Below, piece after piece: positions 22,987-48,269 of a DNA stretch of 64,000 nt. The notes under the pieces were generated by a model, which ran no database searches, was not told the origin of the DNA, and saw only the letters and a program-made list of their open reading frames with translations. Numbering within the stretch: the stretch's first letter is position 1; the number at the start of each line of letters is the position of its first letter. Source of the stretch: an uncultured Hormoscilla sp. (lineage in GTDB: Bacteria; Cyanobacteriota; Cyanobacteriia; Cyanobacteriales; Desertifilaceae); contig OZ001293.3 in assembly GCA_963921275.4 (NCBI GenBank), positions 3,328,001-3,392,000 of the forward strand. Reading direction: 5' to 3'. The position numbers and the translations under genes are program-made.

Positions 22987-25784
<2,798 letters not shown>

Positions 25785-36056: not shown

Positions 36057-37053
36057 ATTAGGGGTCGAGCTGGGAATCGCTTCCCAACCCTCCCTTTCGA
36101 ACCGTGCATGCGGTTTTCATCGCACACGGCTACTGGTTAGTTGGACCTTGTCATTGGCAGGATTACTGGGGATTGCTCCCTTTGTCCCTCTTCTTATGCA
36201 GTTTTTCCCCTTTATGGTAGTCGATAGGACTGTTTCGTATCTAGCTCCGGAAGGTTCGCGGGGGGTATCCAGGAAACCACTTATACCGCTCTTTGCTAAC
36301 ATTGCCCCTGTCTCGTCATTAGGGGACTTTTCAAGTTTTACCCGGCTAGAGTTTTAGTCCATATTACAATCTAGGATTTCTCCTGATTTTTGGTACGTAT
36401 TAGGGATACTTCCACCCAAGATTTCCAACTATATCCGACCCACGTCTGCCGGTACATTCCTGCACCACTTATACAAGGAGTTACCCCTGTCCTTTGCTTC
36501 TTGGGCCATCTCTCTCCACATGGCTTACGCTTATCATCTAACTGGTCCCTATCTCCTGACCACCGGTCGATAGTCGAGTAGTTATGGACAGCACACGTGG
36601 AGTTACTTCGTTCCCTGGTATCATTTCACGATGTTTTTAGGTCCCTGCTTTACCCCGGGAGCTACTTTGAGTGTGATGTTGGCCATATGCAACAGCCAAC
36701 ACTAGCTACCATTTCCTTTTTAGGCCAGCGTGTAAGCCTTCTTCCGCTGGTTACACATAACGAGGCTTTCACAGATTCGTTTTCCTAACCATGAGCATCT
36801 TTCCTAGCGGAGTTGCCGACTTTGGGCTGTCAGCTATCCTACATTTAAGTCCTTGCTCCGCACCACGGTGATGTCACTCCGCAGCACTAAGGACCGGTGT
36901 CACCCCCACACCTGGGGAGAGGGAATTTAATCCCCATGATGACCAGAGTTACCATATTGAGCCTGATTATGATTAGTTTTGGTTCTAAACATTCAGTCCA
37001 ATTTTGGCTCGGCTTTTCCGTGTTTGTACAGGTTAGGCCGAAACGAGTCGCAC
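36057..37053 (-). mobile_element. ORF-less group II intron (997 nt), intergenic
   Basis: GTGCGACTCGTT start; DV AGCCGTGTGCGATGAAAACCGCATGCACGGTTC; ends CTCGACCCCTAAT; homologous to the other three introns. Confidence 0.92.
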
Positions 37054-43716: not shown

Positions 43717-44533
43717 ATGTCTAATCATTATGTGACGCCTCCCATACCTGCCCAGCTCAGGCTTTAGGAGTTCATACCAGAACTCTGACGAGATGGGAAG
43801 CGCAAGGTAAAATCAAGGCGATCCGCACGGCGGCGGGACAAAGACGTTACGACCTGGAAGAATATCTCCGGCGTGAGGGGAAGCGCTGCGCGCCGCTGCG
43901 CGATCGGAGATACTGGCAAAACTACAGATGACAGTCAAAATTCCTGTGTTCTGTATGCCAGAGTTGCCACCGGAAGCCAGCTGCAGCAGCTTTCGATGTC
44001 TACCGTTCCGGAAAAATCGGGATGCAACGCAGGCAACCCCTCAGACATCGAGGAGACAAACTGCCGATCTAATGGCAGAGTATCCAGGCTGTGAAGCGAT
44101 CGCCGAAATTGGCTCCGGACTCAATTTTAGGCGGCGTAGATTCCTGGCCATGTTAGAACGAGTCATCCCCCCTATGGTGTATCAAAGATGTATTGTGGTT
44201 GCCCACCAAGACCGGCTAGTTAGATTTGGGGTTGACTTTGTTGAATGGCTCTGTAGGCAATTTGGCTGGCAAATTGTGGTTCTAGACCGGCAGTATCGTG
44301 GTTGGGAAGCGGAACTGATCGCAGACCTGAAGAAAATATTCGGTAGATTCAGTGGCAGGCTGAGGGGACTGGGCAAGTATGAAAAACAGTTGCGGCAAGA
44401 ATTCCCAGCATTCGATGTCTTCGGGATGCAACGCAGGCAACCTACGATTCCTTCCGGACGCACGGCGAAAACCCGGAAGGCATCGCTCAGACATCGAAGA
44501 GGAAATCAATGCGATCGCCTCTGGGAAGACTGA
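43717..44533 (+). mobile_element. IS607-family TnpA (serine recombinase) remnant, frameshifted, no tnpB
   Basis: MerR-like HTH (RTLTRWEAQGKI..GQRRY), YARVA, EIGSGLN, DRLVRFG in different frames. Confidence 0.85.
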
Positions 44534-44939: not shown

Positions 44940-45554
44940 ATGGAAGTAATGGAATTTTTTGGGCAAAGTGCCGGCAAGTGGCGTTCTCGGCGATCGACAC
45001 ATCATCTGCCCTTCAGGCGTGCGGAGACAGGGGCCTCAGAGATTGAAGTGAAAACTCTGGCAGCGGACTCTCGGAGAGTGGTGGAAATCTGCGAATTACA
45101 TCAGGTAGACCCGAGTTTGGCCGCAGGTGGAGCCCTAGTCAGTTGGGAGGGGACAATGGCGTGGGATAAAACAGATGAAAATCATACGGACTCGACGGTG
45201 ATGGTCCTAGTGCCCGATCGGGACAATCCCAGAGCAGGTCAGTTACTGCGAGAAAAAGGCTATGCTGAAATAGTGCCAGTAGCTGGTCGTTATTTGATGG
45301 ACGATGCTGATGGGCTGATTCTGCTGACCGAATATGAAACGATGAGTTCTCAAGAACGTTTCTCCTTTATTAACCCGGATCTGCGGATGCGGACCAGTGC
45401 GGTGAAGCGTTTCGGGGGATTCAGCACCGCATCGTTATGTGTGGAAACCCGGATCGGATCGGACTTAGATGTTTCTAGCAGTAAAGAGGTAACCCCCCAA
45501 CAAGTAGAGGATGCCAGGGAACCCAGACAGTATTACTCGGTATGGGGCTGGTGA
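44940..45554 (+). CDS. cpcS: CpcS/CpeS-type phycobiliprotein lyase
   Basis: EFF..SAGKWRS.R.THHLPFRRAE, LLREKGYAE, ERF.F..P.LR.R. Confidence 0.88.
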   Translation: MEVMEFFGQSAGKWRSRRSTHHLPFRRAETGASEIEVKTLAADSRRVVEICELHQVDPSLAAGGALVSWEGTMAWDKTDENHTDSTVMVLVPDRDNPRAGQLLREKGYAEIVPVAGRYLMDDADGLILLTEYETMSSQERFSFINPDLRMRTSAVKRFGGFSTASLCVETRIGSDLDVSSSKEVTPQQVEDAREPRQYYSVWGW

Positions 45555-46074
45555 GGTCAGTCCCTTTGTACGCGGCTATGAGTATTTGCAGGCTGTGCGC
45601 CAACTGGCCTTAGACCCAAAGATGGTGGAGGTTCCGGATAATCCACGCCTGATTACCTGGGTTGGCAATCACATTGACGCGATTAATGCCCAACTGCATG
45701 GCAGTCTGGAAGCCTGTCACGGCTGCTTTCATGTAGAGGTGCGCCGTCAGGTCCGCATTCTGGCCACCCCTTTAGCCCCAGAGTTTGGCATTGACGGTTG
45801 TTGCAATATCTGGCGAAATCCTGTGGCGATCCTGATCGATGTGGGTAGGACGGCACCGGCGGATTGGTTGAGCGTCGTTGTCCATGAATATACCCATGCT
45901 CATTTGGGTTCCCCGGGTCACGATCGGCGATTTTTTGACATTATATGTCATCTGTGTTTGGGACTGGGATTAGAACCGCCCCGGTGGCAGCCTGAGATGG
46001 AAACTTACTTACGTTATTGGCCGCAAGTATCATGCCGGATAAATCCTCTGGCTTTTTGGATGGGGTACTCATAA
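45511..46074 (+). CDS. Hypothetical HExxH metalloprotein (SprT-like)
   Basis: VVHEYTHAH..GH...F motif; start uncertain. Confidence 0.65.
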   Translation: MPGNPDSITRYGAGEVSPFVRGYEYLQAVRQLALDPKMVEVPDNPRLITWVGNHIDAINAQLHGSLEACHGCFHVEVRRQVRILATPLAPEFGIDGCCNIWRNPVAILIDVGRTAPADWLSVVVHEYTHAHLGSPGHDRRFFDIICHLCLGLGLEPPRWQPEMETYLRYWPQVSCRINPLAFWMGYS

Positions 46075-46270
46075 ACGACGGTTGTCGATATTAGTCATAA
46101 ATATTTAAATGTTAACAATTTTCAATTTTCAATTTTCAATTTTCAATTTTCAATTCCAAGCTAATAACATCCAAAAACACGATCCAACGCCCAGATAAAA
46201 AAGTTTGAGAGATAGACACCCGATTGCTATATAGTGAAAAGTTAAGGTTTGTAAGATTTTCTCAGATTAG

Positions 46271-46531
46271 GGACCAACCACAAACCCTAGCTAAAGACAG
46301 CTCTGGCTGGCTAAAGCTACTCAGGTTGGTCAAGCTCACCCGCAAGGGTCAACGTTATTCCAGTCATGACACCTTGGGGTACGTGGCTAGCTCCAAGCTC
46401 TGTCGGGTGTCGTTAAACAGGCAACTGGGTTTGAAAAGCTAGTGCGGCATTCGCTTGCAAGCCGGAATAACCGAGCGAAGCCAACTTTACGAGCAATCAG
46501 AAGAGACGCAACAATGTCTAACTTTTGGTAA
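46271..46531 (+). ncRNA. Orphan IscB-type omega (HEARO-like) RNA with only the first codons of iscB left
   Basis: ACGTTATT..CATGACACC..GCTAG..GCTCTGTC..TTAAACAG..AGTG..ATAACC..GCGAAG..AACTTTAC block order, then ATG TCT AAC TTT (MSNF) at 46514; 5' boundary approximate. Confidence 0.72.
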
Positions 46532-46574
46532 GAGATGATCAGCAAAACAGCAGAAAAAATGTAGGAGATTAAAG

Positions 46575-47342
46575 GTGGCAATTCCGTTATTAGACTACGC
46601 CCCCGTGACCATAAATCCTCGGGTAGCTGGGTATGAGATTCCCGGAGAAGAGCAACCCAAAATTTACTCCAGCGAAAACTTGCTGTCGGCAGGTGGAATC
46701 GACGAGTTGATTTGGGCGGCCTATCGCCAGGTGTATAGCGAACATCAGATCCTGAAGCGTAACCGGCAAACATTCTTGGAATCTCAGTTGCGGTTCGGAC
46801 AAATCACAGTGCGGGATTTTATCAAGGGTCTAGTGACTTCCGCTCCGTTCCTGCAGCTGAATTACGAGACGAACAGCAACTACCGGTTTGTGGAAATGTG
46901 CGTTCAGCGGCTGTTAGGTCGTGATATTTACGGGGAACGGGAAAAACTTGCTTGGTCGATCGCGATCGCCACTAAGGGCGTGCAAGGTTTTATAGATGAG
47001 TTGCTCTCTTGCGAGGAGTACATGGCCAATTTTGGTTATGATACAGTCCCCTATCAACGGCGACGGAGTCTGCCCCAACGTGCGCAAGGGGAGACGCCAT
47101 TTAACCTGAAGACGCCTCGTTATGGTCCATACTACCGGTCCATAGCAGGCTTCCCGCAAGTTGTTTGGCAGACTCAGGTGCGCCGTTTTGTTCCACAAGA
47201 GAAGAAGGCCAAGGCAGGGGATCCATCTCTGTTTATGGGTATGGCACGGGCAATTTCTCCCACAGGTAACCCCGGAGGCAGGGTGTCAACTGTCAACATC
47301 AATTACGAGGCAATGGTGCCCTATCGGAGAACCACAGCGTAG
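46575..47342 (+). CDS. cpcG: Phycobilisome rod-core linker CpcG
   Basis: [30 protein letters not shown], hydrophilic C-terminus. Confidence 0.95.
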
Positions 47343-48269
47343 GCACAAGACTTCTAAGAGTCTAGTAAAGGCTGCCGGTGGAGGGGCAATCGCCTGTATC
47401 CACTCCCCAGATAGGGGATGCTGCAAGCGCAGTTTCCAAGCGTGGAGTGCTTGACCGGGCAGATTGACACCCACTCCCCGATTCTTGCTGTAAGTGGGGT
47501 CGCCGATTATGGGATGGCCGATATAGGCAGCATGGACGCGAATTTGATGGGTGCGACCGGTTTCTAGTTGGAACTGCATGAGGGTGTAGTTACCCAATCT
47601 TTCATATATTTGCCAGTGGGTAATGGCAGTTCGTCCTCCTTTTTCTAGGGGTACGACTGCCATTTTTTGGCGATCGCCCCGATGACGCCCGATCGGTTGG
47701 TCGATGGTGCCTTCGCTTTCTTTGAGGGCACCGTGGACTACTCCCAGGTATTCTCGTCGGGCCGTCTTGGCCTTCAGTTGCCCTTGCAGATGTTGCAGGG
47801 CGATGTCGGTTTTGGCGATCGCGATCGCCCCTGTGGTATCTTTATCCAGTCGGTGGACTATTCCCGGTCGCATTTCCCCACCTATGCCCGCTAAGTCGGG
47901 AAAGCGAGCTAAAATTGCATTTACCAAGGTGCCTGTTTCGTGACCTGGTGCCGGGTGGACCACTAAGTTAGCCGGTTTGTTGACTATTAGCAAGCTTTCA
48001 TCTTCGTAGAGAATATCTAAAGGGATGTTTTCCGGTTCTAGTTCTGTCCGTTGCACCGGAGGGATCCTCAGAGTCAGGCGATCGCCCCTTTGCACGATCG
48101 TCTTTTTGGCAGTGCAGACCTTGCCATTTACTTGCACATTGCCTTGTTCTATCAGCTTTTGGATCCGAGAACGGGATAGGTCTGGCAGTTCCTGGGGCAG
48201 GTGGCGATCGAGGCGTTCATTAGTTGCTTTAACTTCTAGGTTAATTATACTTGATTGTTGATTGTTCAT
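47286..48269 (-). CDS. rluD: RluA/RluD family pseudouridine synthase
   Basis: S4 domain [30 protein letters not shown]. Confidence 0.92.

Follow-up and report, generated by a model that had tools for sequence, protein, structure and literature searches.

An orphan HEARO/omega RNA in the cpcG leader of an uncultured Hormoscilla sp. is best read as cargo of a stranded IscB mini-element

The leader of a phycobilisome linker gene is an odd place to find the guide-RNA scaffold of a transposon-encoded nuclease. In a window of 64,000 nucleotides from an uncultured Hormoscilla sp. (contig OZ001293.3, positions 3,328,001 to 3,392,000), which is the whole stretch of DNA analysed here, such a scaffold lies directly upstream of cpcG, together with a micro-ORF. 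A sequence-only reading of the locus had proposed that the RNA acts either as a trans-acting guide or as a domesticated, structured 5′ UTR with a regulatory upstream ORF. How did the RNA come to lie there, and does it do anything for the host gene? With a probability of roughly 0.85, the HEARO RNA sits on a stranded, non-autonomous IscB mini-element that is tolerated because its end restores the ribosome-binding site of cpcG. The features on which the argument turns are as follows.

46230..46235, plus strand: TATAGT, putative −10 box of the host promoter for cpcG; unchanged in all 11 orthologous leaders that are empty
46238..46255, minus strand: candidate HLR1-like (RpaB-type) repeat in the host leader, matching by eye at 13 of 16 positions; conserved in empty alleles
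46252..46271, plus strand: 5′ flank, the would-be guide, placed on the model of Meers et al.; its sole match is the empty cpcG leader
46272..46564, plus strand: non-autonomous IscB (IS200/IS605) mini-element of 293 bp, with both ends of the reference element L045; site empty in 4 of 4 congeners
46273..46490, plus strand: HEARO/omega-RNA scaffold (RF02033 by cmscan, 89.9 bits, E 6.7e-17, model positions 1-211 of 211)
46514..46531, plus strand: MSNFW* micro-ORF (ATG TCT AAC TTT TGG TAA), first iscB codons joined to sequence of the right end by the internal deletion
46524..46564, plus strand: transposon end 3′ of iscB (LE in IS200/IS605 terms), ending CAGAAAAAATGTAG, common to 9 distinct loci
46563..46567, plus strand: rebuilt Shine-Dalgarno (SD) sequence AGGAG, 7 bases before GTG; the element supplies AG and the host target GAG
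46575..47342, plus strand: cpcG-type phycobilisome linker gene, 255 aa (PF00427, E 2e-43)

The PF00427 linker frame that starts at 46575 is the gene we take to be cpcG, in agreement with the family as we know it. The presence of an orphan HEARO/omega RNA in its leader was borne out, as the RF02033 match is full-length and its 89.9 bits exceed the gathering score of 83 bits; it is the one HEARO match among five gathering-level Rfam matches in the window. The reading that no iscB frame follows the RNA was likewise correct, with none downstream and not a single PF14239 match in the genome. Of the proposed extent, 46271-46574, the RNA part stands and the end coordinate does not, the element stopping at 46564; what had been overlooked is that 46524-46564 constitutes the other transposon end. 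Six stems could be drawn from the cmscan alignment (omega RNA architecture: Kato et al. 2022, PMC9640706), and 38 of their 39 pairs are kept in the cpcG copy. In 11 other copies of the family, 17-39 of the 39 pairs are kept. HEARO scores across the family run from 40.9 to 105.8 bits, with the cpcG copy inside this range, and two of 11 scanned family loci gave no HEARO match at E 0.001. Two elements of other cyanobacteria with a whole iscB reach 130 and 165 bits, above the cpcG copy. Judged against these pair counts and bit scores, the cpcG scaffold is in a good state but nothing exceptional, and its near-intactness suits youth, though mild selection as well.

The scaffold belongs to a larger unit with two recognizable ends. 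Positions 46272-46521 of the window correspond to the first 250 bases (89% identity), and 46524-46564 to the last 41 bases (83% identity), of L045, the 1611-bp element of a relative whose iscB is broken and which served as reference. Since both L045 ends occur within 293 bp, the window copy is an internal-deletion derivative. Element and target share an initial GA, which leaves room to place both cut points 2 bases further right. An IS607-type serine recombinase acting on such a 2-base GA core was considered as the mover and proved uninformative, as ordinary GTCA/GTGA elements have an equal 2-base overlap. The 5′ end folds as DNA at −14.2 kcal/mol, a value obtained without a shuffle control, and the 3′ end folds at −1.0 to −1.4 kcal/mol in the window copy and one long copy, with no clear hairpin of the subterminal kind that a Y1 substrate should have.

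Four related copies in the genome begin at the same first base, GACCAACC, though their flanks are unrelated; iscB is absent throughout, and three of the copies, all but that at cpcG, are truncated or decayed. One of them, copy C (C1:6756515), lies within repeated sequence, with related repeats at C1:4705776 and C1:1694157. The element pattern was found at 14 places, 13 in Hormoscilla and one in Ca. Paraprochloron, with one genome scanned per species. Some of these copies continue into iscB, and every long family copy seen is interrupted by stops or cut short. When 401 genomes of the class were searched at the DNA level, 18 gave matches, and only in this genome did the match reach the 5′ terminus. 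By a rough heuristic, the GACC terminus occurred at none of 80 metagenome iscB loci, of which 32 showed GTCA, 23 showed other 4-mers and 25 gave no call.

Relatives record the state of the site before insertion. Thirteen cpcG-like loci were aligned, two of them paralogues with unrelated leaders and 11 orthologous, the latter from 4 congeners and 7 genomes of one other genus in the family; the element is absent from all 11 orthologous leaders. In the congeners the empty allele reads ...GATTAGG followed by GAGATTTAATAAAG and the GTG, without target duplication. The filled allele carries a 4-base deletion that brings the SD closer to GTG, at 7 bases instead of 11, so the locus was altered after insertion. 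The predicted anti-SD duplex is −7.3 kcal/mol in the filled allele and −7.9 in empty ones. The mean unpaired probability near the ribosome-binding site (0.58 filled, 0.37 in one empty allele) comes from single-sequence folds without pseudoknots and is not relied on.

No more than 14 bases lie between the insertion point and GTG in empty alleles, and these include the SD; the cpcG promoter should therefore lie upstream of the insertion point. The putative −10 box and the HLR1-like repeat, the latter compared with the HLR1 consensus given in PMC11633204, would fit this place. TATAGT is absent from the output of a sigma-70 scan, which demands a −35 box; the three promoter-like sites that the scan returned, all on the minus strand within a 7-base repeat, and one terminator-like site at chance level are not used as evidence. 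A tandem 7-base repeat, CAATTTT at 46113-46156, lies upstream of the cpcG promoter and occurs in 1 of 4 congeners. Directly 5′ of the promoter is an ORF of 187 aa (45511-46074) with a HEXXH-like HEYTH motif and no Pfam match. According to Meers et al. (bioRxiv 10.1101/2023.03.14.532601), in the part of the preprint available, IscB omega RNAs rely on outside transcription, and such elements tend to be oriented like the genes upstream of them; a position within a host 5′ UTR is thus as predicted.

A second strain carries the same cpcG insertion with a scaffold that is not intact. One sponge metatranscriptome sample, sequenced in two runs, yielded contigs that span the junction of element and cpcG (46394-47400 and 46394-47343); being assembled from RNA libraries, they are silent on strand, start and level. 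After 46474 they carry a 23-base insertion, and a second one is marked by inverted-repeat arms on the loose ends at 46382 and 46394, the two 5′ pieces being joined by inference from the common arms. One insertion falls in a core loop and the other in the outer stem, both inserted motifs are repeats in the genome of the cpcG copy (20 and 79 counts), and the cpcG frame is kept. The 4-base spacing change is also common to this strain, with no insertion listed there. The upstream genes are without RNA cover and one contig ends at 46256, with 16 letters of flank, an observation from one study that is not evidence of a transcription start or of transcription. Run X12 yielded cpcG pieces only, and run X1, probably the source of the assembly, is not independent. 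Within cpcG itself, about 24 of the 27 differences listed for the second strain (X8/X10, region 46847-47111) fall within 46961-47111, probably a recombined patch, which neither congener alleles nor the nearby paralogue explain.

The micro-ORF finds its explanation in the structure of the element. It ends 43 bases 5′ of the cpcG GTG, and MSNF had rightly been taken for an iscB start, given that iscB begins MSN(Y/S/F) in longer family copies. The tryptophan and stop belong to the 3′ part and could be the original final codons of iscB, as the homologous DNA encodes DGFSYSF, which resembles the C-terminal end of whole IscB. In another genome, a mini-element (L078:1261-1541) is inserted inside psbEFLJ, bounded exactly by the psbF stop and the ribosome-binding site of psbL (PF02419), and its junction, ATGTCTAACTTTTGGTAAGAGATGA, is identical to the base with that of the cpcG copy. 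The psbF-psbL site is empty in the genome with the cpcG copy. The micro-ORF is thus a deletion junction that is not specific to cpcG, and the simplest reading is that the mini-element moved as a unit.

These results bear directly on the proposal that the leader has been domesticated, as a structured 5′ UTR whose upstream ORF regulates cpcG. The position between the putative promoter and the start codon would suit such a role, as would the nearly complete pairing of the scaffold and the occurrence in a second strain of the same insertion and 4-base shift in spacing. However, none of the 11 orthologous leaders is filled, so that the comparison of relatives gives no conservation of the element; the supposed regulatory uORF recurs before psbL; and in the close strain two insertions disrupt the scaffold (its 5′ pieces being joined by inference) with the cpcG frame intact. 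Domestication is accordingly very improbable.

A further rival is that the mini-element never moved as a unit. Full-length copies at cpcG and psbL could have been deleted alike, by microhomology or gene conversion, or an old insertion could have been precisely excised in the congeners. The mini copies are just 87% identical, CTTT microhomology occurs at both deletion ends, and other family copies carry different deletions, all of which would suit parallel deletion; the junction is nevertheless the same to the base in both copies. As for an old insertion, its loss in four congeners together with its absence in seven outgroup genomes demands more events than one gain. Both versions together are very improbable.

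A guide acting in trans would need a nuclease and a target. The PF14239 (RRXRR) search, whose own controls stayed silent but which was positive in 4 of 4 congeners, gave no match in this 96.7%-complete genome, and tblastn with three IscB queries returned no iscB, its matches being confined to two short remnants of the 3′ part, HNH-only sequences and one stretch of flank; the possibility of an intact iscB elsewhere in the genome thus found no support from either search. Empty alleles join the would-be guide flank directly to GAG. Elsewhere in the genome there is no perfect 10-nt seed with GAG for the cpcG guide, and the best 16-nt match with GAG has 2 mismatches, both near the motif. When the guides of four copies were searched, only that of copy C had a perfect 16-nt match with GAG, in a paralogous repeat; there, in its empty paralogue, the match is followed by GAGG and would be a self-target given an IscB. 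A source of transposase is no clearer: of two PF01797 (Y1-like) matches, one has QDH at the expected HUH and the other is weak (23 bits, 157-aa frame), and no tnpA/tnpB element with the same 3′ end was found in 5 genomes. Lacking an IscB, a guide target and a clear Y1, the cpcG mini-element looks stranded. That the RNA serves in trans an IscB encoded elsewhere, cutting empty cpcG leaders or some other target and so guarding the filled allele, is highly improbable: the working anatomy of an omega RNA (a promoter of the host upstream, a guide taken from the flank and GAG at the empty junction), the proposed trans use of stand-alone omega RNAs on PATE-like elements (Meers et al., as far as the preprint was available) and a genome 96.7% rather than wholly complete speak for it, but the genome has no RRXRR domain or seed match and every long family copy seen is broken.

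The stranded mini-element can be given a history. A full-length IscB element of a small family, comprising omega RNA and iscB, lost nearly all of iscB by internal deletion, which left a 293-bp unit with both ends; this unit would then have moved whole, presumably by a Y1 transposase acting in trans. The empty alleles show that its insertion, which duplicated nothing, lies immediately 5′ of the GAG in the cpcG SD. There its terminal AG and the host GAG spell AGGAG again, which should leave cpcG translatable. The host promoter upstream would have the omega RNA read within the cpcG 5′ UTR. With no IscB remaining, the RNA would guide nothing and would be a tolerated passenger in which decay is beginning. 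On this history the cpcG locus would be a transposon remnant of a known kind and not a new regulator of photosynthesis, and it carries a caution: orphan omega RNAs borne by leaders may mimic riboregulators with uORFs.

The choice of target may hold wider interest. Intact 3′ ends are available at 9 distinct loci, and the next bases are GAG at 8 of them; the ninth reads GAT, and its empty allele reads GAGG. Orthologous empty sites found for 5′ flanks show GAG in 8 of 8 cases, the site of copy C reads GAGG and GTGA in two paralogous repeats, and four other 5′ flanks yielded no empty site. The element terminus is TAG (TTG or TAT in two copies), so that a junction with a GAG target reads AGGAG or GGAGG. 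A gene start lies 8-13 bases past the junction at 6 of these 9 loci; the other 3 do not fit. The six genes are cpcG, psbL, one for a HEAT-repeat protein and ORFs of 220, 125 and 235 aa; for the 220-aa gene, the empty alleles read TAG followed by GAGA in 2 of 4 congeners. The family inserts inside the host SD and contributes only the first bases of the SD.

By rough gene calls, the 8-13 spacing occurs at 1.1% of all GAG and 1.6-2.2% of non-coding GAG. Among sense GAG near gene starts it occurs at 12%, and 6 of 9 against 12% gives P 1.9e-4, a figure that again uses rough gene calls and belongs to a window chosen after the sites had been seen, with a small sample (n=9) and some loci rearranged after insertion. 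The pattern could also arise without any targeting beyond GAG, through purging of harmful insertions. Judging from the transposon target, GAG would also be the TAM of the nuclease.

Comparison with known systems places the RNA itself as a known kind and the GACC/GAG family with SD docking as a new variant. Like the HEARO RNA (RF02033) of IscB OMEGA systems, the cpcG copy matches the model over its full length, starts at the element end and is followed by an iscB start; it differs in that iscB is missing both in cis and from the rest of the genome, and in a 5′ terminus GACC instead of GTCA. ISC elements, as described in the available part of Kapitonov, Makarova and Koonin (2016, PMC4810608), have 5′-GTCA ends and targets that include GT|GR and N|ATGA, among others. 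Their Table 1 gives GT|GG, GT|GA, GT|GT, GT|AA, TT|GG, TT|GA, N|ATGA, AA|GG?, CC|CG and unknown for 22 families. The cpcG family resembles these transposons in its short iscB elements, fixed 4-base target, lack of duplication and empty orthologous sites. Its target, N|GAG (GA|GN in ISC notation), is in none of the 22 families of that table, and its 3′ end differs in being short and without a clear hairpin. In the main text of that paper, as far as available, the words "start codon", "Shine", "ribosome" and "translation" do not occur. In the titles and abstracts covered, no account of SD targeting by IS200/IS605 elements was found.

PATE-like elements, minimal IS200/IS605 elements with omega RNA for which use in trans has been proposed (Meers et al., bioRxiv 10.1101/2023.03.14.532601, in the part available), offer another likeness, in that they too have both ends and an omega RNA without a protein gene, need external transcription and hence take a place downstream of a host promoter. 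The cpcG copy differs from what is described there in having no partner nuclease in its genome and in a target that is the SD core.

It is tempting, and no more than tentative, to suppose that the lineage was retargeted by one base, from GTGR, which resembles a start codon, to GAGR, the SD core, that the 5′ terminus passed from GTCA to GACC, and that the 3′ end evolved to a TAG that rebuilds AGGAG(G), so that the element aims at ribosome-binding sites. If true, a transposon aimed in this way would be harmless to the downstream gene and assured of a sense promoter upstream, as an IscB guide RNA requires, and an IscB with a GAG TAM is predicted. A GAG target with an SD-rebuilding end would be a second route, beside start-codon docking, into essential operons (cpcG, psbEFLJ) and their promoters. 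The family would also offer a natural case of a change of target motif in IS200/IS605, with its TAM prediction.

Other iscB elements show further arrangements. Among other cyanobacteria (loci L080-L100), many ordinary iscB elements end in GAGG or GGAG, 5-8 bases before an ATGA, GTGA or GTGG target. Nineteen loci were examined and 16 ends called by a rough rule; 7 of the 16 open an in-frame ORF of at least 100 aa, a pattern that fits start-codon docking. A second iscB family in the congeners (L049, L051-L054) has whole genes of 421-424 aa on elements of about 1544 bp, with ends formed by imperfect inverted repeats (about 20 bp) followed by TG; terminal inverted repeats are atypical of ISC.

Two further features of the window deserve mention. 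Between the cpe genes and nblA, an ORF at 43928-44533 gives a weak resolvase (PF00239) match and has a non-homologous N-terminus; it is probably the remnant of an IS607-type transposase. Group II intron domains V-VI (RF00029) occur three times, at 24053-24130, 25104-25181 and 36057-36134, and two of the three, about 1 kb apart, score identically.
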